Source: a virus
Length of the DNA stretch: 39,958 nucleotides
Virus record (IMG/VR): IMGVR_UViG_3300037882_005016
Span: 1 to 39,958 of that record
Direction: 5' to 3' (one strand)
Positions 11,201 through 31,591 of the stretch are shown piece after piece. Below the pieces are notes generated by a model. The model was not told where the DNA came from and searched no databases. It was given only the letters and a program-made list of their open reading frames with translations. Every line of letters starts with the position of its first letter. Position 1 is the stretch's first letter. The position numbers and the translations under genes are program-made.

Positions 11201-12243
11201 TAGTAGTATTCCTCTATATAAATACAGCCAGCAGATCCAGCGCCGCCAAGAGAAGCTGCCGAGTTATTTAAAGTTAGCGCTCCGCCGCCGCCGCCGCCAA
11301 AGGATAGACCTGGATTTCCAACACCGCCAGTTGTTCGGCCTGAACCGCCTGAGCCGAATAGACTGTCTCCGCCTCGACCCGAGTGACCAACTGTTCCAGA
11401 CTCTCTATTTCCAGCCTCGCCAACGACGCCGCGTTTATTTATTAGTCCATTTGTTGGTGATCCGCCGCCAGCCCCGCCGGCTGATACTGCAGTAACTGTT
11501 CCGGCTGTCATTCCTGCACCGCCAAAGCCACCGAGAGCTGTATATGTTACTGCATTTATATTTAATGAGGTTGTTCCTCCGGTTGCTCCTGCTCCGCCCG
11601 CATTGGTTCCGCCAGCTCCACCCGCACCAATTGCTATTGTGTAAGGTCCTGTCGCAATGTTTTCTATAAAAACAATACACTCAGAGCCGGATCCGCCTCC
11701 GGCAGCAGCTGCGCCCTGACCTATTCCGGTTGAGCATCCGCCGCCGCCCCCGCCAGCCCCAATTAATATTGCTTTTATTCTCGTCGTTCCATTCGTTGGA
11801 GAATAAGTCGTGCCGGATGTAAGCACTCTCGCCGCGATAAGACCGGACATTACCCGAACGACTCCATTAGCAAGAAAATTAAATCTATTAGTGGCTGAGT
11901 TGTACCATACGTCTCCGTTGGCTGCATTAATTGGCGTAGTTGTAACAGAGCCAACATTTAATCCTGAATTATTCACGTTAGGAGAAAAGTTTTGTTTTTG
12001 CCCATTTGTGTACGTGTTTGATTCGGTTGTTTTAACGTAGTTAATTAGTGGACCTGTTTCACCATTAACAGATTGTACAGGAGCCGCTGCTGCAGCCTCA
12101 GAGACAGTTGTATATACTGGATGAGGATCAGCAGATGACTCATGATTTGTAATTGCCGTCGAAATATCCGTTGCCGTTTGCGTTGAGGTCGGCGCATCAA
12201 GTGTCGTCTCAACAACTATTGTGTCAACTCTAAGATCACTCAT
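11200..12243 (-). CDS. Tail/head fibre protein with a glycine-rich C-terminal domain
   Basis: 347 aa. Fibre motifs are NHESSADPHPVY and VQSVNGETGPL. The C-terminal roughly 190 aa are G/A/S/T repeats (GAGGGGGGC...GGAGGTNAGGAGATGG...) ending in CIYIEEYY. Confidence 0.7.
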   Translation of the reverse strand: MSDLRVDTIVVETTLDAPTSTQTATDISTAITNHESSADPHPVYTTVSEAAAAAPVQSVNGETGPLINYVKTTESNTYTNGQKQNFSPNVNNSGLNVGSVTTTPINAANGDVWYNSATNRFNFLANGVVRVMSGLIAARVLTSGTTYSPTNGTTRIKAILIGAGGGGGGCSTGIGQGAAAAGGGSGSECIVFIENIATGPYTIAIGAGGAGGTNAGGAGATGGTTSLNINAVTYTALGGFGGAGMTAGTVTAVSAGGAGGGSPTNGLINKRGVVGEAGNRESGTVGHSGRGGDSLFGSGGSGRTTGGVGNPGLSFGGGGGGALTLNNSAASLGGAGSAGCIYIEEYY

Positions 12244-12719
12244 TCGACGCTCTCCCCATGGCTAATTGCAATCCACAAAACAGGCTGAGAAAGAGCGCCG
12301 TTTGCATTGCTATTTATTACAACACTTGCTGCTGTTTGTGTTTGGTATTGCCAATTTCTAGAGTTGCCACCTAAGACAACAATAGAATACGCGGTTGATG
12401 GAAATGCTGTTGTAAAATTTAAAGTAAAAACTCTTGGTGTCCCAACAAAACTTGCGGCAGGAATTGTTCCAGATTTAATTATAGTGTTTGCACTAATAGC
12501 ATCAAGTTTTACTTTGTCAGCTGAAGACATAAACCCATTGACCGTGGTTGTTGCAACACTATGAGATGCTCCGCCTGAACCAATATGCGTTGCTGGCGCT
12601 GTAGTTGTATCAACATAGTTTTTCGTTGCTACGTCTTGCGCAGCCGTTGGATCGGGATGATTTATTCCCTTATTCAACGACTGAAAATCAATATCCGCGT
12701 GAACTTTTCTTGATGCCAT
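12240..12719 (-). CDS. Fibre protein (short)
   Basis: 159 aa. Motifs are INHPDPTAAQDVATKNYVD and GFMSSADKVKLDAI, both common in phage fibre proteins. Confidence 0.6.
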   Translation of the reverse strand: MASRKVHADIDFQSLNKGINHPDPTAAQDVATKNYVDTTTAPATHIGSGGASHSVATTTVNGFMSSADKVKLDAISANTIIKSGTIPAASFVGTPRVFTLNFTTAFPSTAYSIVVLGGNSRNWQYQTQTAASVVINSNANGALSQPVLWIAISHGESVE

Positions 12720-12724
12720 TTATA

Positions 12725-13396
12725 TTATCCTACTAAATCAACTCTTACACCTGTGAGAGATTGATTTGATGTTAAAATAATCTGATTGGGATTCGTCCCT
12801 CTTTTTACTTGTAATAAAATCTCTTCATCGGTTGAGTTATATGTTTGCACAGATCTAATGTTAACAACTGTTGCTGCTGTAACTGTTAAATCAGTATTAG
12901 CAACAAGTGCAACTGTTTGGGTTTCAGATTGAGCCGCCCCAGAAGATATTGATCCGTCATTTAAATTTCTATTTACACCTAACCAATTCGCAGCTGTGGT
13001 TGCTCCGCCGCCAAGATAGATTAAGACATCGCCAACTGAGAGTACGTCATCTCCTTCAATTCCAGAGATAGTTCCTGCTGTTGAAACGTACCAATAGTCG
13101 CCTTTTAATATCTGTGTTGTGTCACCAGAGACTTTATTCGCAGCTGTTGGAAGTGCCCCTGAAGATGCATCAAATCCGTTTTGTAGTTGGCCGAGAGCTG
13201 CTACTTGTTGTGCAACGTAAGACTCAGTTGCAACTAAAATATCTGTCCCATTTGATTGATACTCTAGTTTATTTAAGTCCGTTCTTAAAACTAATTGACC
13301 GTCGAAAGTCGGGCCTGTCGTTGTTTTTTGTTGTGACCAGTTTTGTAGTTCGTTTTGATTTCCGTTTGAGTGTACATGATGCTTTCTCTCAGCCAT
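12725..13396 (-). CDS. Fibre-like structural protein
   Basis: 223 aa, with LVATESYVAQQVAALG and a beta-rich S/T/G/N composition. It lies inside the fibre gene run. Confidence 0.5.
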   Translation of the reverse strand: MAERKHHVHSNGNQNELQNWSQQKTTTGPTFDGQLVLRTDLNKLEYQSNGTDILVATESYVAQQVAALGQLQNGFDASSGALPTAANKVSGDTTQILKGDYWYVSTAGTISGIEGDDVLSVGDVLIYLGGGATTAANWLGVNRNLNDGSISSGAAQSETQTVALVANTDLTVTAATVVNIRSVQTYNSTDEEILLQVKRGTNPNQIILTSNQSLTGVRVDLVG

Positions 13397-13433
13397 TTTT
13401 ATTTTCCTTCCATAGAAATAAAATTAATAAAAT

Positions 13434-14831
13434 TTAATATCCTTCAACAATTACTGTGTAAGTTGCAACTCTGTTGCTTCTAATTTCAACTCCACTATCA
13501 CTTGATACAAGTCTCCACTCTATTTCAATTGGCCATCTTGCCGATTGATCAAGAATCGTTACGTCTGAAATATTTGTTATATTCACAAGTGGTACATTTA
13601 CAAATGTATTTATTTGTCCCGCTCCAATAGACATAGCAATTTTTTCAGTTAACTGTCCACCGCTTGAGGCGGGCGAGGACTGACCAATGTCTCCACATTC
13701 TCCGTCAGAAAGTCTTAATAGATTGTTATGGCCAAACCAAACCTCTGAGCCAATTCGTCTTGCTATAATAGCAACATTAGGTCCGGTTGGAGCGCTTGCA
13801 ATATTTCCAGTTATCACAGTTAAAGTTTGTGGTGTATTGGAAGTGTTTAAAAAAACGTAGGCAACTGAGCCGTCAGCATTTAATGAAATATTTTGAGCAG
13901 CAATTCTATTAGCAGAAAGATCAAGTCCAGGATATTGCATAAACAAATCTTGTCCAATTGTGACCGTTGCTATTCCGCCGCTTGGTGAATTAAATTCTTC
14001 TTGTGTGTAAACTCTTTGTCTAAAATCTAAGCCTTGGGCAACAAAGCTACCGCCGCCTGTGTTTTGAGTTTTTCTCTCAAAGTTTGGCAGATCACTTACC
14101 GTATTAAACCAGCTTTCAACCGTATTTGATGCGTTGAACGTAGCTCCCGAAGCAAAGTCTACGACATACCAATATTTTGCGCCCGCACTTAATATAGGCT
14201 GAGCTGGAAAAACAAAGTCATAAAGAGTGTCAAAATCAGTTCCAATTGTTGAAACATCTATTAAAGAGGCCGTTGCTATTAATGCCCCAGGAATATCGCC
14301 AGTGTCGTTGGCATATAGATTCATTTCAATACTACCAGTTGGCGCATTTGATCTTCTTAATTGTATAGCAATCTTAGTTAGCCTCTGGTTATTAGCCCCA
14401 AGAATAGTAAATGACTGAGCGTGCACTGCTGTCGTGTGATAATTTACAAAATTAGTATTCCCTGTCTTAGGAACTTCATAAAGTATTGCTTCAGGAGAAT
14501 AGGAGATTCCGCTTAAAACAGAGTTACAAATATTGCCTGCGTCTTGAGAGACTAAAAGCCAATTACAACATGACTCAAGACTGGTTGCACCTGTTCCAGA
14601 GCCCGTACTATCTATGTATTCAATATCAACAGCACAGCCAGAAAGAGTTTTTCCTTGTGAGAATACATATCCGATAGCCTCACTAATATTTAAAGTTTTT
14701 AATACTCTAATTTTAGATAAGTCTGAAGGATCTAATTTCACTAGATCATGATACAAGAGGTCCTGTCCTGCTATATGAAACAGGACAACTCTTTTTTTAC
14801 TCATGTCTCCGCGTGAATCTTGAGGATACAA
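13434..14831 (-). CDS. Large structural protein of unknown function (possible receptor-binding or fibre-anchoring protein)
   Basis: 465 aa. TTG start with AGAGGT 6 nt upstream. It is the first gene of the fibre island after the protease/scaffold gene. Confidence 0.4.
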   Translation of the reverse strand: MYPQDSRGDMSKKRVVLFHIAGQDLLYHDLVKLDPSDLSKIRVLKTLNISEAIGYVFSQGKTLSGCAVDIEYIDSTGSGTGATSLESCCNWLLVSQDAGNICNSVLSGISYSPEAILYEVPKTGNTNFVNYHTTAVHAQSFTILGANNQRLTKIAIQLRRSNAPTGSIEMNLYANDTGDIPGALIATASLIDVSTIGTDFDTLYDFVFPAQPILSAGAKYWYVVDFASGATFNASNTVESWFNTVSDLPNFERKTQNTGGGSFVAQGLDFRQRVYTQEEFNSPSGGIATVTIGQDLFMQYPGLDLSANRIAAQNISLNADGSVAYVFLNTSNTPQTLTVITGNIASAPTGPNVAIIARRIGSEVWFGHNNLLRLSDGECGDIGQSSPASSGGQLTEKIAMSIGAGQINTFVNVPLVNITNISDVTILDQSARWPIEIEWRLVSSDSGVEIRSNRVATYTVIVEGY

Positions 14832-14854: not shown

Positions 14855-15940
14855 TTAAACTTGAACCTTGATAATTGCTTCAGCCATAGTTTTAGCAACG
14901 CCAGACTTTAAAAGCTCTCCGGCCTTAGCTCTAATCAAATCAACTTCGTTGCTAAATTTATTCTTATCAATATCTTGAGGCGTTGGAATCTTTTTTAATT
15001 CTTTTTCTTTTAAAGACTCTTGCTTTGCTGGCATAGATGATAAAACTAAATCAAGCTGTTCTTTTGAGAATTTCAAATAGCTCTCGAGCTGTTCGTTTGT
15101 TAACTCAACACCTTTTAAATTAAACTGTTCTTTAATTACTGACTTTTGAGCCTCCATTAAAGTAGCGATCTCTTTGTCTTCGTAAGATTTTAGTTTAGCT
15201 AAAAGATCATCAAACTCTGTCTTTTTAAGAACGATCTCTTCTTCTTCTTTTGTCTGCTCTTTTTTCTTACCGCCACCGCAGCCGCAATCAAAAGTAAACT
15301 TATCGTCAATCTTTTTAATTGTTGCTACTTCTTGGTCGTTAAAAATAACTTTATCGTCTTTAATTGTAATAGTATGCATCTTGCTATCTCCCTCTTCTTT
15401 AATAAATCTTTTTATTGGTATTATTTTATCTTGCTCTTGTGAAAAAGCGTGACCGCTTGTGTTTGGATCTGCGCCTAAAGTAACAAAGCTGACCTCTCTG
15501 ACAACAGAGTCTCTAAAAACAGTAACAGGACCCTCGAATGTTCTATTATTTACATTTACTTTAGTACCCGAATGATATGTGTCAACTCTAGAGGGCTCAA
15601 TATGGACTGACATTTCCCAAGGAAAGCCATCGTTTGAAAGCTCTTTTATTTCTCTTCCGGCTGATGTGTTCATAATAGAACCGTCAATCTTAAGCATTGA
15701 ATCTTCTTTTTTTAGCTTTCCTTTTCCTGCTCTTAATTTTCTATCATGTTCTTGTAAAACAGGGATCGTATCCTTAGATGAAATTGAATCGATATCAAAG
15801 ACTAGGTTTCCCCAAAAGAAGTGGTCTTTAATCATTTCGCCAGAGTAGGCAACGCCCTCAAACTTTGATTTTTCTTCATCGAAGATAAACTCTGAACCAA
15901 ACTGGAGTGCCTTCCTTGGCACATTTTTCAACTCATCCAT
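14855..15940 (-). CDS. Prohead protease with C-terminal scaffold-like coiled coil
   Basis: 361 aa. S78/HK97-protease-like blocks are PVLQEHDRKLRAGKG, WEMSVHIEP and VREVSFVTLGADPNT. The C-terminal 150 aa are E/K-rich coiled coil. Confidence 0.65.
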   Translation of the reverse strand: MDELKNVPRKALQFGSEFIFDEEKSKFEGVAYSGEMIKDHFFWGNLVFDIDSISSKDTIPVLQEHDRKLRAGKGKLKKEDSMLKIDGSIMNTSAGREIKELSNDGFPWEMSVHIEPSRVDTYHSGTKVNVNNRTFEGPVTVFRDSVVREVSFVTLGADPNTSGHAFSQEQDKIIPIKRFIKEEGDSKMHTITIKDDKVIFNDQEVATIKKIDDKFTFDCGCGGGKKKEQTKEEEEIVLKKTEFDDLLAKLKSYEDKEIATLMEAQKSVIKEQFNLKGVELTNEQLESYLKFSKEQLDLVLSSMPAKQESLKEKELKKIPTPQDIDKNKFSNEVDLIRAKAGELLKSGVAKTMAEAIIKVQV

Positions 15941-15946: not shown

Positions 15947-16735
15947 TTATCTCCCCTTTTTATTATTTTTTTCAAACTTTTTTAAGAATCTATCAAAAAT
16001 ATCTTTATTTCTATCATACCACAAAGATGCCCTTGGTCTAGTATCTCGAAGTCTAGTCGCGAAAGCTCTTTTAATTTTTGAAGGAAGGTTATTAAATCTC
16101 TCTTTAGCATATTTTTCTAAAGAGTCGGCGCTTAATTCAATTCCTTCTTTTTCAAATCCCTTATCATTGCAAGGACCATTTCTTTTTCTTTTATATATTC
16201 CTGTTCCAGCCGAGCGACTTGATCTATCAAGGGCCTGCTTTTGAGTCATAGACTTAACCGTGCAACGACAATTAAACCCATTCGGTGGCAAACATTCTTT
16301 CCAAAAAGAACTATTAATAGTTCTAATAATTCCATCAAGAGCGAGATGTGATGGTCTGGTCCTGCTATCATTTATAGCATCGTATTGTAGATACGGTCTT
16401 TTATCTTTGTTTTCAGATGATTTTTTAAAAATACTGGCGTTGTATGCAGACTGAATATTGGTTCTAAAAACAGTTTCCTCGTTATATATATTCTGCTCAT
16501 TTAACTCTGTGGAAAAAGTTTCCTTCCACTCATCGAAGCTTAAGCCATTTTTTTTAGCCTTTTTTAAGTTATTAAGGACAGCGTCTATCTCGTCGGCCTG
16601 AAGGGCGATTCCGACTGTTTCAGAATATTCTCTTAGCTGTATTGGTGTCTTTTTAAAGAAGTCCTCTGATAGCTTTTCTTTAACTACTTCCTCAAGAGAG
16701 TCCTCTAATTTAATACTAACTAATTTTTTTGGCAT
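15947..16735 (-). CDS. Minor head protein, Mu F / SPP1 gp7 family
   Basis: The motif RPSHLALDGIIRTINSSFWKECLPPNGFNCRCTV is the hallmark of this family. It is directly downstream of the portal gene. Confidence 0.85.
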   Translation of the reverse strand: MPKKLVSIKLEDSLEEVVKEKLSEDFFKKTPIQLREYSETVGIALQADEIDAVLNNLKKAKKNGLSFDEWKETFSTELNEQNIYNEETVFRTNIQSAYNASIFKKSSENKDKRPYLQYDAINDSRTRPSHLALDGIIRTINSSFWKECLPPNGFNCRCTVKSMTQKQALDRSSRSAGTGIYKRKRNGPCNDKGFEKEGIELSADSLEKYAKERFNNLPSKIKRAFATRLRDTRPRASLWYDRNKDIFDRFLKKFEKNNKKGR

Positions 16736-18246
16736 TAATTATTAAGATATCCCAACACGCTTGCTGCGAATAAAGAGTTTGTTAACGTATCAGTGAACTC
16801 TGGATGATCTCGTCCTATTAATACGGCAAGTCTATCCTCAAGGTCTGCCTCATTTTCTGCGCCCGCAATAACAGATCTTAATTCATCTACTGTTAATGGG
16901 GTCGGAGCTTCTTGAATAGCAAGATCGCCAATCTCTTCAACGGCTTCCTGCTTGCTTGTGAACTTTTTATCAGCAAATTGATATTCTTCTTGAGAGGTCT
17001 TTGTAGGATCTGGAACTTCTTTTTTAATATTATCTTTTACGCCCATTTCAATATCTCCATCATTATAGTCGTATCGCTCTAATAAGTATTTTTCTGTTAA
17101 CTTTATAGCCCCAGCGTTCACTAAGATCGCGTCACGTTCGGCTCTATCTTTTCCTAAAGACTCTTCTTTTTTATATTGAAATACAGGTATGTTCTTTGTG
17201 TCTTTATTGTTAATCGAATAAATATGTCTTATTAATTGATTAATACCTTTAGCGATCATCTTGCCGTCAGTCATCGCAAGAGATCTGAGAATATCTTTAT
17301 GTACTTCTCCCAAAGAGCGAGAGCCAGAATCATCAGTTCCACTGGTTAAGGTCTGTCCAAGAATAGTTTTATATATTCTTTTCTCAACTAATTCTAAGAA
17401 CTGGGCCTGACTTGTTCCATCGGACTTTGAATCAAGAACAGTTATCTCGGTCTCTTTATCTGTTGCTAATGCAGAGCCTGAGTGGGCCTGACTTAGAGCC
17501 TCCATTAACTGATTTACTGAGCTATCTTTTGGATTGCTTGAATTAGGTCTTGTCTCTTTTGTTTTTCCATAAAGAAAAGGAATACCAGTTCTCTCAATAA
17601 ACTTTGCGTAAAATTCATAGCCTTTACATCTAAAAAAGTATGGCCAGTAAAGTCGCATGAATAAAGATTCACCATATGGATTCTGAGACGTTGGTCTATT
17701 TCTAACAACAAAATATCTCTCTGGAATCTCATGAGGTTGATACTTAGAATTATTATTAAATAAAAGCTTAGTTAGATTGCCGAGATAGTCAAAGCCATAG
17801 TCGCCTATTCTTTGATCAATTAAAAAGCTTGGTAATATATATTTTTTCCCATCAATTATCTTATCAGACCAGACAACCTCAGAGATATGATTGCCATAAA
17901 GAGTGGCATTAAATCCATATTCTGTAAAAATTGGGACTAGATCTTTTAGGGATTGATAAATAAATTCAGATTCTTTTTCATCGTCACCAGAAATATCCCA
18001 AGACAAGGACTCTAGTTCTGAGCGTCTTTGGTTGACCGCGAAGAAGATCGCATCGTCAAAGTAAAGTTTTGAAAGTTCTCTTCTCCCGCCCATTTTATTT
18101 ACAAACTGTTCAGGATCTGGCATGGATTTAAAAACCATATCCATTAAATCAAAAGAACTGAGCTTTTTGAGTGCCTCAACTTTAGAACTTGACTCTATTT
18201 GTTTTGAAGGACTATCAGCAAAGCGAAAAATTTTTAAGAAATCCAT
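16735..18246 (-). CDS. Portal protein (Mu gp29/DUF935-like by context)
   Basis: 503 aa, between TerL and the Mu-F-like gene, with ATGA-type overlap with the downstream gene. Confidence 0.8.
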   Translation of the reverse strand: MDFLKIFRFADSPSKQIESSSKVEALKKLSSFDLMDMVFKSMPDPEQFVNKMGGRRELSKLYFDDAIFFAVNQRRSELESLSWDISGDDEKESEFIYQSLKDLVPIFTEYGFNATLYGNHISEVVWSDKIIDGKKYILPSFLIDQRIGDYGFDYLGNLTKLLFNNNSKYQPHEIPERYFVVRNRPTSQNPYGESLFMRLYWPYFFRCKGYEFYAKFIERTGIPFLYGKTKETRPNSSNPKDSSVNQLMEALSQAHSGSALATDKETEITVLDSKSDGTSQAQFLELVEKRIYKTILGQTLTSGTDDSGSRSLGEVHKDILRSLAMTDGKMIAKGINQLIRHIYSINNKDTKNIPVFQYKKEESLGKDRAERDAILVNAGAIKLTEKYLLERYDYNDGDIEMGVKDNIKKEVPDPTKTSQEEYQFADKKFTSKQEAVEEIGDLAIQEAPTPLTVDELRSVIAGAENEADLEDRLAVLIGRDHPEFTDTLTNSLFAASVLGYLNN

Positions 18247-18310: not shown

Positions 18311-19747
18311 TCAAAACACCCTATTTCTATTTGTTGCAATCGACATAGAGTTGGCTTGGCTTAAGCTTAATATGCCCATGCTCAACATATCAACAAAATC
18401 ATCGTTCTCCCCGCGAGGGAATGATAGTAATTGCTCTACTGCTTGTTGTACTTGTGGATGATTTCTTGGGAAATAAACTCTTTTTTCAAAGAATTTTGGG
18501 CTAACGGCATTTAATCTTGCCACCTTAGAGCCTGAGGGCTTCCAAAGCTCAATACCTTGAATTTTTTCCTTTAGTATTGAGTAAAGTGCTGCTCCGTTTG
18601 CGGCGTCCTCAACAAGCTTAGTAAAGGCTCTCGGATGTTTATAGCTCATTATTTCAAATTGATTTATAGTTCCAGAGAAGTCTGTCTGTCCAAGGTAGAA
18701 ATCTAGAATATAAATATCATCCCCCTTAAGACCAAGCACGCCGCCACAGACAAAATCAGAGTCCTCGTTTCCTTTAAAACTTAAATCCCATGATTGAATT
18801 GTGATAAGCATCTCTTCTGGATTAACATAATCATAGTATTTAATTTGTTCTTCTTTAATTATTGTTCCATCTAAAGGTCTAGGTCTCTGTTGATAAAGTG
18901 AGTTCCAAGTTCTTTGATTTGATTTTTTATTCTCTAAGAATTTAAGATCGTAGACTGAGGGCCAAAGAGCTTCACCCATTTCTCTTTTGTCGTACGGCTT
19001 ATCTAATTCTTTAATCGCCTCTAGTTCAAGATATTCAAATCCATCTTCTTTATATTTTTTTATTCGACCCACTAGGTCATCTTCGTGCCATCTAGTTTGT
19101 ATTATAATTTTTTGGCCATTTTTTTCTAGTCTTGTGTCTGCTACTGATTTGTACCAGTCCCACAGATTGTCTCTCATTACTTTAGAGTCAGCGTCCTGAG
19201 GCCCTTTAATTGGATCATCTATTAAGAAAATATCAGCTCCAAGACCTGTCATTCCGCCGCCAACGCCTGCGCATTTATAATAGCCTTGATGATTTACTAT
19301 TTCAAAAGTTTCGGTATTTCTTAGATATGAGGTGTCTCTCTCAGAGGATGATACCACTCTTTTAGAGTTTAGCTTCGTATCCGGAAATATTTCTTGATAG
19401 CTTGGGTTCTCAATAGCGAGCTGTATTTTTCTATTATTAGCCTTTGCTAAACCTGATGCATATGAGGCTGCTAATATTTTCAGCTCTGGGTTTATTCCAA
19501 AGCAATAGGCGGGAAAGGTTATGGACGCTAATTCAGTTTTTCCGTGCCTTGGTGGCATACAGATTATTAGATGCTTGATATCTTTATTTAAAAGTGCGTG
19601 AAGATGATCAGAAATTAGCTTGTGATGCCAGTTAACTTGATATTTTTTTATTAATACTTTCGCAAGGGCCGTGATTTTTATGGGCGCTAAGGCTTTTAAC
19701 AGCTGATCTTGGTTTAGTAGATGCTCAATATCTTTTTCATTAATCAC
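18311..19747 (-). CDS. terL: Terminase large subunit
   Basis: Walker A-like ICMPPRHGKTE, Walker B-like ADIFLIDDP, a following IIQTRWHEDD block and a C-terminal nuclease-like half. It overlaps the TerS stop by 4 nt. Confidence 0.9.
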   Translation of the reverse strand: MINEKDIEHLLNQDQLLKALAPIKITALAKVLIKKYQVNWHHKLISDHLHALLNKDIKHLIICMPPRHGKTELASITFPAYCFGINPELKILAASYASGLAKANNRKIQLAIENPSYQEIFPDTKLNSKRVVSSSERDTSYLRNTETFEIVNHQGYYKCAGVGGGMTGLGADIFLIDDPIKGPQDADSKVMRDNLWDWYKSVADTRLEKNGQKIIIQTRWHEDDLVGRIKKYKEDGFEYLELEAIKELDKPYDKREMGEALWPSVYDLKFLENKKSNQRTWNSLYQQRPRPLDGTIIKEEQIKYYDYVNPEEMLITIQSWDLSFKGNEDSDFVCGGVLGLKGDDIYILDFYLGQTDFSGTINQFEIMSYKHPRAFTKLVEDAANGAALYSILKEKIQGIELWKPSGSKVARLNAVSPKFFEKRVYFPRNHPQVQQAVEQLLSFPRGENDDFVDMLSMGILSLSQANSMSIATNRNRVF

Positions 19748-20256
19748 AGCTCTTCATTATTTAATACTTTATAAATTTGTTCAAGCTGCTCAGGGGTTAC
19801 TACTTTTAGCTGATTATTTTCTTGCTGCTCTCCCTGATTATTTTCTTTTTCTTCTGTATAGTCTGACTCTCTAGTTTGAATCTTTATCCCTAATAGGCTG
19901 AGGAAGTCTCTCATTCTTGCTGGGTTTTTATCATTAAAGAGAAATGTTATGTACTGAAAGCACAGAAGCGTCATCATGTCGTGCTCTGGATCTGTCTTTG
20001 TGAAGTCAAATTCGTTTTTTTTTAATTTTAATAGAGATGAGAGTGTTGCTAAAAACTTAGGCTTATTCTCTGAAACAAATTGATTTTGTGCTGAGGTAAA
20101 ACCTCTTTTAGAGTGTGGGTTTTTCCCTACTCCTGATGGATTATTACAGTAGCCTTTTTTAATCGTACCGTCTGGGTTTCTGGCTATAAGTCTTCCATCT
20201 TTTGCCGTTGTCCATAAAGTATTATCATCTTCTTTTTTGTCAATTTCGTCGCTCAT
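19744..20256 (-). CDS. terS: Terminase small subunit (putative)
   Basis: 170 aa, immediately upstream of and overlapping terL. It has an NPSGVGKNPHSKRG motif of the kind seen in small-terminase-like proteins. Confidence 0.55.
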   Translation of the reverse strand: MSDEIDKKEDDNTLWTTAKDGRLIARNPDGTIKKGYCNNPSGVGKNPHSKRGFTSAQNQFVSENKPKFLATLSSLLKLKKNEFDFTKTDPEHDMMTLLCFQYITFLFNDKNPARMRDFLSLLGIKIQTRESDYTEEKENNQGEQQENNQLKVVTPEQLEQIYKVLNNEEL

Positions 20257-20309: not shown

Positions 20310-21215
20310 TCACATCTTTTTATTTTTAATTTCGACAGCATTCAATAACTCCAAATATTTTTCATCGCCTAGAGCTCGCTTATTAATTTTTATGATCTTC
20401 AATAAATTTTCTTTATTATATTTATTTTTATTACGAATATTTGTAATATCTTTTGCCCTCGCTAGTTCTTGATTTTTACTGAGGCACTGCCCCATCCCTT
20501 TCATCGTATAAAAAACCAAGCTTCCACGAATACTCCCCACATCACCATCACTTTGTATAGGCATAGCTCCATGCAATATTGATCTTCCGTCAAAAATAGT
20601 GAGAGCACCAGACCTCTGGGAAAGAGTGATGTTTATTTCTGGCAAACACAGTTCTCCACCAGAAACTCCTTTCTTATAAATCAACACTGTAGACGGTATT
20701 GCCGAGAAGTTCCCTTTATCATAATGATATTTTATTGCGTGATTCATATTGACGTTTACCGTTGTAAATGGAGAGTTGCAAAATATATAATCATTGCAAA
20801 CATTTTGTTTTATAAAGTCCATTGCATACTCTGCCTTTTCTTTCTCTAATTGTTGAAATGTGTCATAAACATATTCATTCAATACGGCACAAATTCTGAA
20901 GTTTTTTTTCTCATCTAACGTATGTCTGGTCGCCCTACAAAAATCATGTCTCATTGGCACTCTTGGCAAAAATCCAAAAACGCTGCTTCTCTGAGATAAT
21001 CCATTGGACCTAGATTTTTCTGTTGGCTTTGTTGTTTCACATAAAATTCTACATATGTCTAAAATATCATTATCAATTATTTTATATATAATATAGCCCC
21101 CATCACTCAACTTGATGTGACAGCTTTCGTCTATTAATTCGCCAGTTATTTTAGGTGGGACCTTGCCTAGTAGACCACTTTCAACGGGAGACCTACTTGC
21201 AAATATTGTTTTCAT
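20310..21215 (-). CDS. TET/JBP-family 2OG-Fe(II) dioxygenase (nucleic-acid base oxygenase)
   Basis: H-x-D block YHYDKGN, distal-His block GALTIFDGRSILHGAMP and Arg block IRGSLVFY, in the order and spacing of TET2 HRDIHN / GSVLIECARRELHATTP / TRLSLVFY. Confidence 0.75.
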   Translation of the reverse strand: MKTIFASRSPVESGLLGKVPPKITGELIDESCHIKLSDGGYIIYKIIDNDILDICRILCETTKPTEKSRSNGLSQRSSVFGFLPRVPMRHDFCRATRHTLDEKKNFRICAVLNEYVYDTFQQLEKEKAEYAMDFIKQNVCNDYIFCNSPFTTVNVNMNHAIKYHYDKGNFSAIPSTVLIYKKGVSGGELCLPEINITLSQRSGALTIFDGRSILHGAMPIQSDGDVGSIRGSLVFYTMKGMGQCLSKNQELARAKDITNIRNKNKYNKENLLKIIKINKRALGDEKYLELLNAVEIKNKKM

Positions 21216-21846
21216 AAAATTCCATTAAAAAATTGAGCAAATCAGAACTACCGCCAGCAAACTCTATTATTTTTAAATACTTGGAGTATTCTTTCTCACT
21301 CAAAATAAAAGACACCTTCCTGATGTCTCCTGTGACAAATCCCTCGATACGATCGGCCATAGATGTATAGCTTTTATTGTTGCTCAGAGTGTCTGAATCT
21401 TTATCTGCTGGCTCTATAAAGAAATTATTTATTCCAAGCATTTCAATATTAAAGTCTGGCCCTAGATTCTCGATCTCAAGATTTATTTCATCGAATTTTA
21501 ATTCTGACCACACCTTAAGAGCGTTATCTGCTACCATGTGAGAATACTCTTGGTCCTCATTCTCAAAGTCTTGGTAATTTACAGGAACATAGTCCCAGCC
21601 ATTCATTAGACAGGCTTCTCTAGTTCCGTGGCCCGTAACCATAAAGTTAGAAAGCCTTGACACTTGAATCGGCTGTCTGATTCCTTGATACTTTAGAACG
21701 TCCGCGAGTCTTTTAATCTGTTCCTTAGGATGAAAGTTTGGATTTCTCGGATTCGGCTTTAGATCTTCGATATGAACAATTTCACTTGAAACACATTTTA
21801 TATAACTAAGCTCTGATGGCTTAGCTGCTTTCTTATTTTTTTTCAT
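21193..21846 (-). CDS. ParB/Srx N-terminal-domain protein (ParB-like nuclease domain)
   Basis: IEDLKPNPRNPNFHPKEQIKRLADVLKYQGIRQPIQVSR...VTGHGTREACLMNGWDYVPV fits the ParB N-domain pattern. At 217 aa, no methylase domain is attached. Confidence 0.7.
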   Translation of the reverse strand: MKKNKKAAKPSELSYIKCVSSEIVHIEDLKPNPRNPNFHPKEQIKRLADVLKYQGIRQPIQVSRLSNFMVTGHGTREACLMNGWDYVPVNYQDFENEDQEYSHMVADNALKVWSELKFDEINLEIENLGPDFNIEMLGINNFFIEPADKDSDTLSNNKSYTSMADRIEGFVTGDIRKVSFILSEKEYSKYLKIIEFAGGSSDLLNFLMEFYENNICK

Positions 21847-24485: not shown

Positions 24486-25340
24486 TTAATATTTACACGC
24501 TTGATAGTCACCGTCAAGAGAGAGGTCCTCATCAAAAAAGGTGAGACTAAATTTTCTTTTTTTAGCCTTATCACATAGAGTTTGAGAGTAGCCTCTATAT
24601 TCTGCCTGAAAGGCTGGCTTATTATTTTTAGTATAATCTAGATATCCATCGCATTCATCATACTGATCGCATTGCTCTATAAGAACGCCGTCGTAATATT
24701 TCATTACATCTTTAGTTAGATCAGGACCATTTTTCATTAGAACAACCATGCCCTTCATGTGTGAGTATAAGCTAAGCATTTTTAAATATTCTACGTTCTG
24801 AGAATGAGAGATTTTGAATCCAGTATCATTATAAGCGCTGTCAACATTATCAAACTCTAGTCCAGAGCAGCCCTTTTTTTCAGCAAGATCAATTCTTTTT
24901 TTCATAAAGTTTTTTAAATCATTATTTGTAATATCAACCCAAAGTTCATCCCAGCCGTCCATTTTTTTCCCCTTAGCTTTTGCTGGAAAACTTTTTGCAT
25001 CTGGTCTCCAGGCTTCATAAGATCCGGCGGAGAAATAGCATATAATAACTTTGCCTTTTTTCTTTTGATCTTTAATCCATGTCTCTGAAGTATTAAATAA
25101 ATCGATATCAATCAGATCTTCTTTAGGACTTTCTGGCGTATTCTCTATATTCCACTGCCAACTCATGAGTGGTTTTAATTTCTTTCTCGTCTGCTCGAGT
25201 AATTTATCAGAAAAGTTTTGATCATTCTCATCTGTGACATCAATCTCTTCTTTTGGCTCCTCGCCGAGATCGACTTCTGGAAGTTTTGGAATAGTTGTAC
25301 AGGCGGTAGCGAGTAGAATAATTAATAAAAGTTTCTTCAT
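24486..25340 (-). CDS. Exported GH114-like glycoside hydrolase (endo-alpha-1,4-polygalactosaminidase / PelA-hydrolase-like)
   Basis: Signal or lipoprotein-type N-terminus MKKLLLIILLATAC. Blocks are WQWNI, VIICYFSAGSYEAWRPD, GWDELWVDI, KGCSGLEFDNVDSY.. and VVLMKNG, in GH114 order. Confidence 0.7.
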   Translation of the reverse strand: MKKLLLIILLATACTTIPKLPEVDLGEEPKEEIDVTDENDQNFSDKLLEQTRKKLKPLMSWQWNIENTPESPKEDLIDIDLFNTSETWIKDQKKKGKVIICYFSAGSYEAWRPDAKSFPAKAKGKKMDGWDELWVDITNNDLKNFMKKRIDLAEKKGCSGLEFDNVDSAYNDTGFKISHSQNVEYLKMLSLYSHMKGMVVLMKNGPDLTKDVMKYYDGVLIEQCDQYDECDGYLDYTKNNKPAFQAEYRGYSQTLCDKAKKRKFSLTFFDEDLSLDGDYQACKY

Positions 25341-25352: not shown

Positions 25353-26594
25353 TTAATTTTGTTTAACTGTTTCAAGGGCATCGATAAGTCCCGCGCCTTG
25401 TTTGTCTTTTGATAATTTTAAATCAATTGTTTTAATAGTTTTATTGTTTTTTTTATGAATCAGAGCGAAAAGTCCGGTTACATGAGGGGCCGCCATCGAT
25501 GTGCCGTCAAGTTTTTCATATCCTCCACCCGATTTAAGAGAGAGAACACCTTCACCTGGAGCAGTAAAGTCAACTGTTTCTCCACTATTTGAGAAATATG
25601 CAAGATTATTTTTCTCATCTATTGCTGAAACTGTGTAAACATTTTTATAGTTAAAAGCGCCAGGCCAGCCTACTTTTCCTGATTCATTTCCTGCGGCGAT
25701 AACAACGATAATATTTTTATCGGCTGCTTTTTTAACAGCATCGGTTATTAGTTTATCCTCTCCGCCTTCAAACGGTGATCCTAGAGATAGATTTATTACA
25801 TCTGCTTTCTGTTTAATACATTCAAAAATTCCCTCAGCAATCCAGTCTCCCCATCCAACGCCTTCTTTATCAAGAACTTTAGATGCGAATATCTTTGCTT
25901 GCGAAACGCCGACAACTCCGCGTCCATTTTTTATTGCAGAGATAGTCCCCGCCACGTGTGTCCCGTGACCATTGTCGTCCTGAAAATCAGAGTTATTTTC
26001 AACAAAGCTTTTTCCACCAATGATTTTATCTTTAATATCCTCGTGATTTTTATCTATCCCAGTATCAACGACACACACGACGGCGTCTTTTCCATTATAG
26101 ATTTTCTGTGCCTCTAGAGCTTTTACTTTTTCTATTCCCCAAGGAATTACTTCTTTAGATCCTGTTTCTTCATCTTTAGGTGTATCAACTATTGGTGAAA
26201 TAAAATCATCTTTACATTCTAGTTTCGGATCATTTTCTTCACAATAGATACAGTTTTCAATTCCCTCACAAGGATTATCAAAAATATTATCATCTGGACT
26301 TTCAACTTCTTTTTTTTCACATCCAGAAAGAAAACCAACTTTAAATTTCTTTGGCTTATATAAAGTCATGCCATTAATAGTTGAGCCCTCTTTTAATTCT
26401 TTATTTGATTCAAAAGAATAGCCATCAATATTTTCTAATTTTTTAATCTTCTCGCCAGGTATTTGAGAGATGGAAATTATTGATTTATTATTTTCATTTT
26501 TTAAGAGAACGTATCTTTCATTTTCTTTTTTATTATTTAAAAAACTTAATAAAGAAAACAAGGCTATTGGTATTGCTATTAATTTTAGATTCAT
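25353..26594 (-). CDS. Secreted subtilisin-like serine protease (peptidase S8)
   Basis: Catalytic triad blocks are VCVVDTGID, HGTHVAGTI and GTSMAAPHVTG, plus oxyanion AAGNES. It has an N-terminal signal/anchor and a roughly 140-aa pro-region. Confidence 0.93.
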   Translation of the reverse strand: MNLKLIAIPIALFSLLSFLNNKKENERYVLLKNENNKSIISISQIPGEKIKKLENIDGYSFESNKELKEGSTINGMTLYKPKKFKVGFLSGCEKKEVESPDDNIFDNPCEGIENCIYCEENDPKLECKDDFISPIVDTPKDEETGSKEVIPWGIEKVKALEAQKIYNGKDAVVCVVDTGIDKNHEDIKDKIIGGKSFVENNSDFQDDNGHGTHVAGTISAIKNGRGVVGVSQAKIFASKVLDKEGVGWGDWIAEGIFECIKQKADVINLSLGSPFEGGEDKLITDAVKKAADKNIIVVIAAGNESGKVGWPGAFNYKNVYTVSAIDEKNNLAYFSNSGETVDFTAPGEGVLSLKSGGGYEKLDGTSMAAPHVTGLFALIHKKNNKTIKTIDLKLSKDKQGAGLIDALETVKQN

Positions 26595-27683: not shown

Positions 27684-27941
27684 ATGCATCCAGATCTTAA
27701 GTCGGATATCCTTTTAATTTTATCAAAATGTGAGAGTCTTTTATTGAACGCTATCAATGAAATGCACTCTGAATTATCGGCTGAAAATAAAGAAGAGTTT
27801 AAAAACATGATTAAGGGTTTTGTTAAAATCAATAATAATTACTTTAGAGAGCAGCTTGATATCTATGACAACGATCTTATAGAAAAAATGTCAGCATCTT
27901 TTGAGAAGTCTCTAGATAAAAAGACGATTATTCAACTCTAA
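27684..27941 (+). CDS. Hypothetical early protein
   Basis: 85-aa ORF with a GAGGAG RBS 8 nt upstream. It is the first gene of the plus-strand block. Confidence 0.6.
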   Translation: MHPDLKSDILLILSKCESLLLNAINEMHSELSAENKEEFKNMIKGFVKINNNYFREQLDIYDNDLIEKMSASFEKSLDKKTIIQL

Positions 27942-27946
27942 TTAAT

Positions 27947-28123
27947 ATGAGTTTAAATAATAATGACAGGGTTTATCTTAACTCAAAATATTTAATTGAG
28001 TTTCGTTCTCTTTTTTATAGTCGTTTAAAGAAAATTTCTTATTCTAGTCATGGTGAGGAGCGGGAATATTTAAAAGAATACCCGAAATTCTCAGGAGTAT
28101 TCATCTCTGTTTTACAGAAATAA
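27947..28123 (+). CDS. Hypothetical small protein (58 aa), below the track cutoff
   Basis: Hand translation: MSLNNNDRVYLNSKYLIEFRSLFYSRLKKISYSSHGEEREYLKEYPKFSGVFISVLQK*. It fills the gap between flanking genes. Confidence 0.35.
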   Translation: MSLNNNDRVYLNSKYLIEFRSLFYSRLKKISYSSHGEEREYLKEYPKFSGVFISVLQK

Positions 28124-28174
28124 TAAATAAAATGAACGAAGAAGCTAATCGTTTAGAAAAAGGATACAAAAAAA

Positions 28175-29032
28175 ATGAATAATATTTTTGACCCGCTTGA
28201 GGATCAAGCAGACCTTGCAATACAGATGATCTATCCGGCGTTAAGAGTTTTAGCAAGGGATAAGTCAACGAGTGGCCTAGAGTCTATTTTAAGGGCCTCA
28301 TCTTCTGGGAAATGCTCTCGAGCTCTATGGTACAAAAAAAATAACTATGAAGAAGAGACTATAAATCCTAGAGCTATAATTAATTTTGCTCTCGGTGATT
28401 TAACAGAGCATCTTTATAAAAACCTTGTCCGCGAAAACATGGTTGGCCCTTTAAAATTATATAAAGAATTAGTTCTAGGAAAAGAGACCGGTGAATTTTA
28501 CTCTCAAGGCAGAATGTTTAAGGCCTATGAACAGGAAACTTGGTCCTTTGATCTAGACTATCTTGGCGAAACACAGAAAGTTACGGCTCATGCTGATGGT
28601 TATGGCTTAAGAAATGATGGCGTTTGGGAATTATTTGATTTTAAATCATCGTCAAATTTCGGATTTATGTCCTTTTTAAAAGACGGTCCAGTTGATTATC
28701 TACCTCAAGCGCATACGCTGATGATGACAAACGAGGCTCGAGAGTTAAATATAAAAGAGTTTCGTTTTTATTATTTAAAAAAAGATACTGGGCACATAGC
28801 GAGTAGGCTTATAAAATATGATAAAGAAATAGAGAAGAAAGTAATTAATAATTTTAAAGAAGCTATAGGAATAAATCGCCCCAAGATTCCTTACTCGCCG
28901 TTAATTGATAAGAAATTAGGCAAAGTTCTACCCTGGCAGTGCTCTTACTGTGGATTTAAAGATCATTGTTTTAAATATAAAACCGAGATTGTTTCTGGTA
29001 GACAAAAAAACGTGGTTAGCTCTCTTCTTTAA
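28175..29032 (+). CDS. PD-(D/E)XK nuclease, Cas4/RecB-like with a 4-Cys cluster
   Basis: N-terminal SSSGKCSRALWY, the core HADGYGL...VWELFDFKSSS (D...E-x-K), QAHTLMM, and C-terminal CSYCGFKDHC. Confidence 0.7.
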   Translation: MNNIFDPLEDQADLAIQMIYPALRVLARDKSTSGLESILRASSSGKCSRALWYKKNNYEEETINPRAIINFALGDLTEHLYKNLVRENMVGPLKLYKELVLGKETGEFYSQGRMFKAYEQETWSFDLDYLGETQKVTAHADGYGLRNDGVWELFDFKSSSNFGFMSFLKDGPVDYLPQAHTLMMTNEARELNIKEFRFYYLKKDTGHIASRLIKYDKEIEKKVINNFKEAIGINRPKIPYSPLIDKKLGKVLPWQCSYCGFKDHCFKYKTEIVSGRQKNVVSSLL

Positions 29033-29225
29033 GAAGGATGATTTCCCAAGTTTTTGATTTAATATCATTCACAGTAAATAGACCAGGCTTAAGTTCATAG
29101 TTCCCTGATTTTAATATAAAAACATATCTATGAATTTCTTTTAAATCTGTTCTATAAATTCCAACAACTTTCATTAAATTTATTGGGTAATCTTCACTTT
29201 TTTTTATCGCTGATTCTAGATCCAT
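29016..29225 (-). CDS. Questionable ORF (69 aa)
   Basis: Open frame only, with no SD. It overlaps the nuclease 3' end by 17 nt. Confidence 0.25.
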   Translation of the reverse strand: MDLESAIKKSEDYPINLMKVVGIYRTDLKEIHRYVFILKSGNYELKPGLFTVNDIKSKTWEIILLKEES

Positions 29226-29304
29226 TTTATAATTATATTCTTTTTTTTTATTTTAATAAATAGACGGAGTTCGAGCTTTTTAAAAAGATCTGCTTAATTA
29301 AAAA

Positions 29305-29665
29305 CAAGGCGTCGCTCAAGGGGGCGTTAGAGCCCCAACGCTCCTTTAAAAAAATCTTATAAATAAGCACCGTTTTAGGCGCAGGAGTGCTAAATACGTA
29401 GTCAGCTTTCTTGTTTTATTCAAGCTCCAGCTAAACTACAACTCGTGGTCCTCGTGAGTGTATGCTCTTCCAAAGGCATCATTTATAGCCTTCCTTAAGG
29501 GACCAGTCCTAGATGGATAGTGATTCGGTTTTATTCGAGGATTACTCCCTCACCGCCTCAGGGCTATCGTCTACTTGAGATTCGTCTATAAACCGTGCTT
29601 ACTGCCAATGATTGATTTATAGATGGGCACTCAAGAACCCCTAGGCAGTTACCTTAAGGAAGTAA
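29305..29665. ncRNA. Candidate structured RNA (or structured DNA element such as an origin); strand and family unknown
   Basis: No ORF of 60 aa or more in any frame across 29226-29816. The core is locally GC-enriched. Nested inverted repeats: 29490-29500/29652-29662 (11 bp), 29508-29512/29641-29645, 29516-29520/29564-29568, 29574-29579/29630-29635, 29585-29592/29616-29623, plus a GC hairpin at 29321-29336. Confidence 0.45.
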
Positions 29666-29816
29666 TTAGTACAGATTTTAAACGAATGTAAATCATTAAA
29701 AATTGACGACTAGTTTAATTCTATAACGCAGCGAGAAATATATTTACTTTAGACCGCTTATATAGAATAAATCTTTTAAGCAAAACAAGGGTATTAAAAT
29801 AGGGGTTAAAAAAACG

Positions 29817-29918
29817 ATGATTGAAAATGATTTTATATTCATCTCTCAAGACGTGATGTTTTATATTTTTATAATCATTGCATTAATAATCTTTATTTTA
29901 AGTTTACTTGATAATTAA
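29817..29918 (+). CDS. Possible 33-aa hydrophobic peptide
   Basis: Hand translation: MIENDFIFISQDVMFYIFIIIALIIFILSLLDN*. AGGGG lies 11 nt upstream, just before the next gene. Confidence 0.3.
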   Translation: MIENDFIFISQDVMFYIFIIIALIIFILSLLDN

Positions 29919-29936
29919 TAAAAAGGAGTATTAAAA

Positions 29937-30278
29937 ATGATTAAACTTGCAGGTCTTTACTTAAAGAAAAAAGAAAATGGTGAACCCTATTTTACAGGAT
30001 CACCGTCTAAAGATTCTGGTCATAATTATTTAATCTTTAAGAATACTAAAAAAACTTCGGACCAGGCCCCCGATTATATTTTATTGATCGCTGAAAAGAA
30101 TCAGCAAAAACCACAGAATCAACAAAATAAAAATAATAACTATCAAACGAATCAGAAAAGAAATAACTATTCTAATAATAAAAATAATAATAACTTTTCA
30201 TCTGACGACTCCTGGCCTGAGCAAGAAGTTGCCCCATCAACAGAGTTTGATAAAAGTAACGACGATCTTCCTTTTTAA
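29937..30278 (+). CDS. Protein with SSB-type C-terminal tip (DDLPF), a Q/N-rich linker and a small non-OB N-domain (DUF736-like)
   Basis: The AAGGAG RBS is strong. The N-domain is MIKLAGLYLKKKENGEPYFTG...APDYILLIAEK. The linker is QQKPQNQQNKNNNYQTNQKRNNYSNNKNNNN. The C-terminus ...SNDDLPF resembles the bacterial SSB DDDIPF tip. Confidence 0.6.
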   Translation: MIKLAGLYLKKKENGEPYFTGSPSKDSGHNYLIFKNTKKTSDQAPDYILLIAEKNQQKPQNQQNKNNNYQTNQKRNNYSNNKNNNNFSSDDSWPEQEVAPSTEFDKSNDDLPF

Positions 30279-30289
30279 GGAAGCATATT

Positions 30290-30541
30290 ATGACAGATGA
30301 TAAATTCGATGAACTAATAACTAAAATTGGTCGCTCTAATATTAGACCGCTAATCGATGATTCCTGCTCAATTTATTTATCTCTAATAAAAGATAGATAC
30401 AAAATTGAAAAGACAGAGCTTAAAAAGTTAGCAGAGCTGTATTTCTTAATTTCTTTAATTCCTTTCACGATCGATGAGGATTTCTTTTCTCTAGTTGAAG
30501 AAGAGAAATATAAATATTTCATTGATCAAGGGATAATTTAA
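30290..30541 (+). CDS. Hypothetical early protein
   Basis: 83-aa ORF, tightly packed in the plus-strand operon. Confidence 0.5.
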   Translation: MTDDKFDELITKIGRSNIRPLIDDSCSIYLSLIKDRYKIEKTELKKLAELYFLISLIPFTIDEDFFSLVEEEKYKYFIDQGII

Positions 30542-30556
30542 TATGAACGAGGAAAA

Positions 30557-30742
30557 ATGTCTGAACCAAGTATAAACATACAAGCATGGATATGTCCTTT
30601 TTGTATAGACGATCACTCGTCAGGTCGTGATTGCAAGCAAGAGGATTTGAAAAAGAGGATAATAAAACTTTTGATTTCAAAAATATCAGGAGTTACTGAA
30701 AGAGAAGTTGAGAATTTTAACATGATGATTGAGATGTTATGA
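30557..30742 (+). CDS. Hypothetical small protein with a CPFC...C motif
   Basis: 61-aa ORF with GAGGAAAA upstream. Confidence 0.45.
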   Translation: MSEPSINIQAWICPFCIDDHSSGRDCKQEDLKKRIIKLLISKISGVTEREVENFNMMIEML

Positions 30743-30770
30743 TTTATAAAGAAGAAAAGAGATAATAAAA

Positions 30771-31022
30771 ATGATGCTAGAATATAAACTTTTAATAGAC
30801 TCAGAAATAAACATTATTAATTTAATGAATTTATGGAAGAAAAACAGGTCTTTACACATTGAAGAAGGGAGAGACTATAATGAGTATTCTAACCTCGTAA
30901 TAGAAACAATAAGACCAAGCGATACGAAATGTGATAAGGATTATGACGACACGATCAGGAATAAAGAAGAAGTAATTGGATTATCCATAAAGCTAGATAG
31001 ACCATTTAAAATTTACACTTAA
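30771..31022 (+). CDS. Hypothetical early protein
   Basis: 83-aa ORF in the plus-strand operon. Confidence 0.45.
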   Translation: MMLEYKLLIDSEINIINLMNLWKKNRSLHIEEGRDYNEYSNLVIETIRPSDTKCDKDYDDTIRNKEEVIGLSIKLDRPFKIYT

Positions 31023-31104
31023 AAAATAACATGAAAAAAAATATTCTTGTAATTTACAATACGCATACGACGCCCTAATAGCCGAGGCAGAGAAGTTGGC
31101 TGAT

Positions 31105-31263
31105 ATGCTAAATCTAACTTTAAACTATTTACATTTCAGATCCGACGATTTAGTTGGGGATGATTGCATTGGCGATGGAAAATTGACGGCTACTTTAAAC
31201 AATAGAATTGGTGAAATTATAAAAGCCCTAGATTCATGGGCCAAGTTTAAGGAGAGAATCTGA
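31105..31263 (+). CDS. Possible small protein (52 aa), below the track cutoff
   Basis: Hand translation: MLNLTLNYLHFRSDDLVGDDCIGDGKLTATLNNRIGEIIKALDSWAKFKERI*. Its TGA overlaps the next ATG (TGATG). Confidence 0.35.
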   Translation: MLNLTLNYLHFRSDDLVGDDCIGDGKLTATLNNRIGEIIKALDSWAKFKERI

Positions 31264-31583: not shown

Positions 31584-31591
31584 GAGAACAA

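Follow-up and report, generated by a model that had tools for sequence, protein, structure and literature searches.

The window analysed here, a 39,958-nucleotide (nt) stretch corresponding to positions 1 to 39,958 of the IMG/VR virus record IMGVR_UViG_3300037882_005016, carries two overlapping genes on its minus strand. One encodes a ParB-like protein of 217 amino acids (aa; 21193..21846) and the other a 301-aa protein (20310..21215) that sequence and predicted structure assign to the TET/JBP-family Fe(II)/2-oxoglutarate (2OG) 5-methylpyrimidine dioxygenases (5mYOXs). The pair probably constitutes a ParB-assisted 5mYOX that converts thymine (T) to 5-hydroxymethyluracil (5hmU) in replicated phage DNA, the oxidised base receiving no further decoration. 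The fold, the catalytic residues, the architecture of the partner, the near-obligate pairing of both genes and the absence of a methylase or of follow-on enzymes come directly from the analyses presented below. The original prediction, made from the sequence of the window, had seen in these genes a TET/JBP dioxygenase coupled to a ParB-like protein, acting on host-installed 5-methylcytosine (5mC), on T or on another substrate. This interpretation is partly supported, because the T alternative now leads and the pairing turns out to be characterised already.

Identification of the oxygenase

The 301-aa open reading frame (ORF) had been recognised by three motif blocks, YHYDKGN, ILHGAMP and IRGSLVFY, which indeed follow each other in the order expected for the family. 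A profile alignment against PDB structures pairs them with HRDLHN, LHATTP and RISLVFY of human TET2 (hTET2), in agreement with the correspondence drawn in the original prediction. The iron ligands H164, D166 and H215 and the 2OG-binding R230 are invariant, and in the correct order, in alignments of 44 and 47 sequences, while N169 aligns with N1387 of the hTET2 HxDxxN motif. The Pfam family Tet_JBP (PF12851) matches residues 135-239 (E = 1.2e-8) with 34.8 bits for a curated cut-off of 34.9, and the match spans only the C-terminal 104 of the 164 profile positions. The precomputed database annotation assigns PF12851 to the 301-aa protein and to all 47 relatives.

The AlphaFold2 (AF2) model of the protein has a predicted local distance difference test (pLDDT) score of 94.7 and a predicted template modelling score of 0.86. 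When it was compared to the PDB with Foldseek, the top 26 matches were all TET-family structures (CcTet, NgTET1, CMD1 and hTET2, E from 6e-13 to 1e-9). CcTet was the best of them (E = 6e-13), NgTET1 aligned with a template modelling (TM) score of 0.63 and the AlkB-family enzymes ranked after the TETs. In the BFVD library of viral structures, the best matches were phage proteins with TET/JBP domains (TM 0.82-0.89). The start of the gene at 21215 is backed by the N-terminal alignment of the homologues, and residues 1-10 of the model reach a pLDDT of 97. Judged by its sequence and modelled fold, the 301-aa ORF is a real TET/JBP-type DNA base oxygenase, with a match far beyond chance; the profile search and the structural comparison agree with the original prediction on this point.

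Two features distinguish the model outside the catalytic blocks. The first is a helical insert at approximately residues 97-138. The second lies beyond the invariant C244, where the last 57 residues form a three-helix C-terminal extension (helices 247-265, 268-277 and 279-300); the ParB-dependent enzymes described in the literature likewise have a variable helical insert and a C-terminal extension past the last conserved cysteine (O'Toole et al., PMC13229309).

The family is large. A HMMER search with a three-sequence profile against 1.84 billion representative proteins retrieved 1476 relatives of the oxygenase, mostly of 265-300 aa, and 288 of them had E < 1e-30. Look-ups of the exact sequence yielded either "hypothetical protein" or no record at all, and no relative of the TET gene turned up among 185,579 species genomes. 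Homologues are found in 98 cultured-phage records, mostly from phages of Mycobacterium, Microbacterium, Arthrobacter and Gordonia. The actinobacteriophage TET genes are often named "oxidoreductase" or "queuine tRNA-ribosyltransferase". The latter name is carried by PHROG 6059 and by a mycobacteriophage RefSeq homologue (NC_022061.1, 810-1766; our locus L010), and it appears to be a propagated misannotation, since these sequences match Tet_JBP.

Architecture of the ParB-like partner

The 217-aa protein encoded immediately upstream matches the Pfam family ParB_N below threshold (E = 1.9e-4) and several PHROG ParB families with E-values down to 1e-20. In its AF2 model, a ParB/Srx N-terminal domain of the nucleotide-binding type (approximately residues 12-140, pLDDT 90-98) is followed by a disordered linker (149-176, pLDDT < 50) and by a C-terminal domain (184-214) composed of two helices, 184-197 and 201-214. 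The top Foldseek matches are Noc, BsParB (6sdk, CDP-bound), CcParB (7bm8), MxParB (7bnr) and KorB; the ParB fold first proposed for this gene is therefore matched. Only the N-terminal domain aligns to the ParB, Noc and KorB structures (E ~1e-5, root-mean-square deviation 1.9-2.8 Å over ~110-130 residues), and neither the AF2 model nor Foldseek reveals a helix-turn-helix DNA-binding domain.

The published activators of 5mYOXs have a comparable organisation: a ParB nucleotide-binding domain, a disordered linker, a C-terminal dimerisation domain and no obvious DNA-binding domain, with MxParB and CcParB as their closest structural homologues (O'Toole et al., PMC13229309). The partner in the window resembles them in having the nucleotide-binding domain, a structured segment, the disordered linker and the C-terminal domain, in its lack of a DNA-binding domain and in the presence of MxParB and CcParB among its nearest structures.

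At the level of the motifs, a profile alignment to Bacillus subtilis ParB places G72-H-G-T75 opposite GERR and N35-P-N37 opposite Q-P-R. The partner therefore lacks the phosphate-binding arginines and the catalytic glutamate of canonical ParBs. Since both arginines are kept (N-P-R and G-N-M-R) by most of the other ParBs linked to a TET in the loci that were fetched, this loss is specific to the sub-branch of the partner, the members of which, on these substitutions, may not bind CTP. The segregation ParBs (Spo0J, Noc and KorB CTPase clamps) share the fold of the N-terminal domain with the partner, but the latter has no helix-turn-helix and no accompanying ParA, in addition to the GERR to GHGT and Q-P-R to N-P-N replacements. 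A role in ParABS partition was considered and rejected on these grounds: the helix-turn-helix is missing, GHGT stands in place of GERR and no ParA-type family was matched in the ORF scans of the genome.

Conservation of the ParB-TET pair

The end of the ParB-like gene and the start of the TET gene overlap by 23 nt (21193..21215, minus strand). The overlap had been noted before and was confirmed by direct reading of the sequence; it suggests that both proteins are translationally coupled. In order to see how general this arrangement is, 80 IMG/VR loci were fetched by means of a three-sequence alignment and the ORFs were called in each of them. A ParB-like ORF lies directly upstream of the TET gene, on the same strand and usually overlapping it (most commonly by 14 nt), in 80 of the 81 loci that have an upstream gene. 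Dereplication of the viral-metagenome relatives at 90% identity left 56 clusters, and the association persists in 54 of 55.

The downstream genes are also conserved. Among the 45 clusters with at least 2.5 kb of downstream sequence, 36 have a large terminase gene (terL) within four genes, 26 of them as the second gene, and in 31 of the same 45 a terminase is nearby while neither the TET-associated glycosyltransferase (TAGT) nor the FkbM methyltransferase is found in the fetched flank. The Pfam families detected in the first and second downstream genes are those of small terminase (terS) type, namely DUF5681, HTH_Tnp_1_2 and Sf6_terminase, and those of terL; FkbM was found at these positions in eight loci and TAGT in three. 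A C5 DNA methylase is next to the TET gene in one of 84 non-dereplicated loci. Most members of the clade of this enzyme show the succession ParB-TET-terS-terL and have neither a methylase nor a glycosyltransferase there, and the layout in the window is therefore the usual one. The typical context of the clade is thus a ParB gene and a terminase, and not a cluster of hypermodification genes.

Cultured phages display the same arrangement. Genes 1-4 of Mycobacterium phage KayaCho code for a ParB-like protein, an overlapping TET (labelled as a queuine tRNA-ribosyltransferase), terS and terL, with no glycosyltransferase between them, and genes 1-4 of Microbacterium phage MementoMori follow the same order, gene 3 being annotated as hypothetical. 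These cassettes differ from that of the window in the sequence of the TET (24-32% identity) and in their hosts, which are high-GC Actinobacteria, whereas the genome in the window has ~35% GC. The cultured mycobacteriophages that share the four-gene layout are better entry points for experiments.

Some relatives carry additional genes. The gene directly after the TET encodes an FkbM-type methyltransferase (PF05050) in seven of the 56 dereplicated relatives, as observed for instance in L001 (10951-13054) and in seven other IMG/VR loci such as L013, L017, L027, L029, L038 and L053. The closest TET homologue (P0002, 39% identity) belongs to a 37-kb phage contig in which a 214-aa ParB-like gene precedes the TET with a 4-nt overlap, and an FkbM-type methyltransferase and then a GT2 glycosyltransferase follow it. 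These FkbM (and GT2) neighbours may represent a branch of O-methylation or glycosylation built on 5hmU.

The search was also carried out from the side of the ParB-like protein. Three full-length homologues (P0200, P0202 and P0208; 38-41% identity) lie directly upstream of Tet_JBP genes, and TAGT comes after the latter in each case. In fact, whenever a full-length ParB homologue with the helical C-terminal domain was examined, it preceded a TET gene, even away from a terminase (L001, L006, L007, L008 and L094). Shorter paralogues have other neighbours. In L009, a 168-aa ParB_N protein (6001-6507) is directly upstream of a gene of the Mom family (PF25680; 6491-7180), which it overlaps by 17 nt; its N-terminal domain is 58% identical to that of the ParB-like protein of the window and a CPxC zinc-ribbon-like tail replaces the helical C-terminal domain. 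In L092 (3001-5289), a 150-aa paralogue of the N-terminal domain is directly followed by a terS-like gene (DUF5681) and then by one for a terL-like protein of 499 aa, no TET gene being present, and in L093 a 156-aa paralogue precedes a 206-aa ORF that has no assignment. The L092 and L009 paralogues indicate that the ParB N-terminal domain is not tied exclusively to TET, and the Mom-family case suggests that ParB-type partners also serve other base-modifying enzymes.

Search for methylases and other modification enzymes

According to the original prediction, no methyltransferase or glycosyltransferase gene accompanies the oxygenase in this genome, and this claim held in every scan. Pfam, PHROG and NCBIfam searches, which took in the ORFs of at least 40 aa on the coding strands and the ORF spanning the junction of the genome ends, recovered neither a methyltransferase nor a glycosyltransferase, and no kinase or amidotransferase either. 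The circularised genome was also scanned in six frames with local profiles for the TAGT and FkbM enzymes of the relatives and with the C5-methylase PCQ motif, again with no match. The candidate explanation of a hidden methylase or transferase was rejected because every ORF and all six frames had been scanned; the 223-aa and 260-aa ORFs of the head region have no matches. The functions that the scans did recover are those of tail, head and lysis proteins, a subtilase, a GH114 hydrolase, a Cas4-like exonuclease, RusA and ASCH/DUF3850 domains, while the same family scans picked up no DNA polymerase, integrase or partition ATPase.

Proposed function and alternative scenarios

Phage 5mYOXs associated with ParB-like proteins hydroxylate T to 5hmU after replication, and ParB is needed for their activity on double-stranded DNA (dsDNA) (O'Toole et al., bioRxiv 2025, PNAS 2026, PMC13229309). 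The in vivo and in vitro characterisation presented in that work distinguishes two kinds of T-dioxygenases, stand-alone enzymes and enzymes dependent on a ParB-like activator. When expressed in E. coli, 5mYOX176 and 5mYOX185 produced <1% 5hmU alone and ~25-35% with their cognate ParB; in vitro, 5mYOX176 required ParB on canonical dsDNA and its product was mainly 5hmU (PMC13229309). The pair of the window resembles 5mYOX176/ParB176 and 5mYOX185/ParB185 in that a TET/JBP protein of ~280-300 aa with a C-terminal extension is preceded by a small ParB-like gene and has no C5-methylase next to it. By analogy with this published family, its substrate would be T, its product 5hmU and its activity dependent on ParB. 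The hydroxylation of T in the manner of JBP, which the original prediction had mentioned as an alternative, thereby becomes the best-supported reading. Two other elements of that prediction do not stand. Its premise that phage TETs rely on a co-encoded C5-methyltransferase (C5-MT) is out of date: in the phage 5mYOX survey, the commonest neighbours are glycosyltransferases (31%), ParB (27%) and terminases (19%), these last being neighbours in the window as well, and a C5-MT is present on 6% of the contigs (O'Toole et al., PMC13229309). Likewise, the pair cannot be called an uncharacterised two-gene module, given that ParB-dependent T-dioxygenases have been studied in vivo and in vitro (O'Toole et al., PMC13229309).

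In the proposed mechanism, the 301-aa enzyme would hydroxylate T at its C5-methyl group in replicated phage DNA, with Fe(II), 2OG and O2, giving 5hmU and possibly some 5-formyluracil or 5-carboxyuracil. The 217-aa protein would be no partition protein but the cognate activator that enables the oxygenase to work on dsDNA, and its small C-terminal domain probably serves for dimerisation. As the two genes have the same orientation as the terS and terL genes ahead of which they lie, production of the two proteins probably coincides with that of the packaging machinery, in which case the genome might be modified before or during packaging; both the co-production and this timing are speculative. Oxidised T would probably be the final modification, because the genome is complete and has no transferase, kinase or methylase, and it would likely protect the DNA from host nucleases, a role that is again speculative.

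Several observations weigh against this interpretation. The characterised phage T-dioxygenases oxidise 5mC approximately as well as T in vitro (PMC13229309), and homology therefore does not settle the substrate in vivo. Many ParB-associated candidates gave <5% or no 5hmU in E. coli (PMC13229309). The published ParB-dependent clade is linked to genes of T hypermodification (GATase, P-loop kinase and AADT; PMC13229309), while no GATase, P-loop kinase, AADT or glycosyltransferase family was matched in any ORF of the window, and most of the close relatives of this genome lack such genes as well. The partner differs from the ParBs of the 5mYOX176/185 clade in the two arginines and the glutamate that it lacks, and it more generally departs from the residues of canonical ParBs for CTP binding and hydrolysis (N-P-N and GHGT). 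On the other hand, the nucleotide-binding residues proved dispensable in ParB176, where mutating them did not abolish activation (O'Toole et al., PMC13229309). The putative membership in the validated subclass of the 5mYOX176 and 5mYOX185 pairs rests on architecture and synteny.

Other scenarios may account for the same genes. One of them gives the partner a broader role: its N-terminal domain would be a nucleotide-independent general adaptor that loads base modifiers or the packaging motor on phage dsDNA, and the pair would make a terminal, packaging-coupled 5hmU. This scenario is suggested by the loss of the arginines and the glutamate in the sub-branch and by the short paralogues that precede either a Mom-type adenine-modification gene or a terminase, and we hold it to be unlikely.

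Another possibility is that the enzyme oxidises 5mC installed on the phage DNA by the host, producing 5-hydroxymethylcytosine (5hmC) at a limited number of sites, or that it acts on host N6-methyladenine (6mA), as the fungal CcTet can. The fold and the active site are common to the 5mC-oxidising TETs, down to the residue equivalent to N1387 of hTET2, the best PDB match is a CcTet crystallised with both 5mC and 6mA DNA, and the comparable oxidation of 5mC and T by the characterised phage enzymes points in the same direction. Nevertheless, the closed genome has no methylase and a C5-MT is the next gene in only one of the 84 relatives; moreover, the 5mC-specific phage clades A and B owe their definition to a neighbouring C5-MT, unlike the ParB-associated clade (Burke et al. 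2021, PMC8256090; O'Toole et al., PMC13229309). In the C5-MT/TET cassettes that produce 5hmC, enzymes of the same superfamily also act on phage DNA after replication, but these cassettes need the adjacent C5-MT and usually feed glycosyltransferases (Burke et al. 2021, PMC8256090), and the genome in the window has neither. The oxidation of a host-made base thus seems improbable. The trypanosome JBP1/2 proteins offer a parallel in chemistry, as enzymes of the TET/JBP fold that hydroxylate T to 5hmU in DNA, the reaction predicted for the pair of the window; they differ in acting alone, with their own DNA-binding or SNF2 domains, and in feeding a glucosyltransferase for the synthesis of base J.

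The position of the pair next to the terminase could alternatively mean that the ParB-like protein chiefly assists packaging, for instance as a pac-site recognition factor or a terminase-linked nuclease, and that the oxygenase is independent of it, their adjacency reflecting a shared timing. The paralogues that precede terS-like and terL-like genes without a TET (L092) or a Mom-family gene (L009) would fit such a role. The association with ParB had already been noted by Burke et al. (2021, PMC8256090), who credit Aravind and coworkers with the idea that ParB steers modification to specific sites during packaging. Yet the full-length homologues with the helical C-terminal domain all precede a TET, some of them at a distance from any terminase, ParB is directly upstream in 54 of 55 dereplicated TET relatives, and in the published experiments ParB activates its cognate enzyme. 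The patterns of repeats and sites around the genes are also at chance level. A mainly accessory function in packaging appears quite improbable. As to the modification linked to packaging that the original prediction had suggested, the location at the head of the packaging module is confirmed and the idea is attributed by Burke et al. to Aravind's group.

Lastly, the pair being catalytically weak or acting on a substrate other than the bases of the phage genome (RNA, or host DNA during a takeover of the cell) is very improbable, as every catalytic residue is intact and none varies among the homologues, the conserved family is a large one (288 relatives with E < 1e-30) and its characterised members act on DNA but are inactive on nucleosides and nucleotides (PMC13229309), even if several ParB-associated pairs made little or no 5hmU in E. 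coli and no follow-on enzyme points here to a hypermodification pathway.

If the ParB-assisted conversion of T to 5hmU is correct, the phage carries 5hmU or a further oxidised T that is made after replication by only two genes, and a modification pathway described only recently would be present here in its simplest form, within a complete genome. Prediction of the pairing dates from before 2021 and its characterisation from 2025-2026, and the pair is common in phages; the present case is useful as one more example and opens no new question.

Packaging context and genome closure

The ParB-like and TET genes are at the head of a packaging and head module, as originally described, and the genes of this module listed here are on the minus strand. 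They are followed by a candidate terS of 170 aa (19744..20256), which begins 53 nt past the TET stop, and by the 478-aa large terminase subunit terL (18311..19747), which overlaps the former by 4 nt. The module continues with a Mu-type portal (16735..18246, Portal_Mu 1.3e-56) and a Mu F-like head protein (15947..16735, Phage_Mu_F 6.3e-19). The original prediction had placed both terminase genes directly after the TET. The identification of terL is firm (Terminase_6N, Terminase_6C and phrog_38 at 4e-108). That of terS is a positional inference, because the 170-aa ORF has no hit in Pfam, PHROG or NCBIfam, nor among the neighbouring ORFs in the relatives; in these relatives, Pfam assigns the genes at this position to DUF5681 (22), HTH_Tnp_1_2 (21) and Sf6_terminase (6). 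In scans around the pair, promoters, terminators and repeats were about as numerous as in shuffled sequence, and no pattern resembling parS or a pac site emerged.

The window has an exact 99-nt terminal direct repeat (1..99 = 39860..39958). This is a signature of circular assembly, and the description of the record as a closed genome of ~40 kb is therefore justified. The ORF that spans the junction, from 39535 through the end into the start on the minus strand, encodes a DUF1833 protein. A nucleotide search with the region 17000-23000 against 50,697 phage records found no match and no close cultured relative, and the protein matches of terL have at most 38% identity and are scattered across many hosts.

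Other genes of the window

An early region (~27684..33254) contains a RusA resolvase, a Cas4-like exonuclease (28175..29032) and a small ORF matching DUF3850 (9e-19), which is possibly the same ORF as the one with an ASCH match (2e-4). On the minus strand, a GH114 glycoside hydrolase (24486..25340), which bears a lipoprotein-like signal, adjoins a protease of the S8 subtilisin family (25353..26594), and both may be depolymerase or host-envelope enzymes. Within the head module, the head maturation protease (14855..15940) and the major head protein (8624..9619) are separated by ~5 kb (9660..14831) of mostly unassigned genes. This interval includes a 465-aa choice-of-anchor R protein (13434..14831), a Gly_rich_2 protein (11200..12243) and the two ORFs of 223 and 260 aa mentioned above, a gene content that is unusual for a head module.

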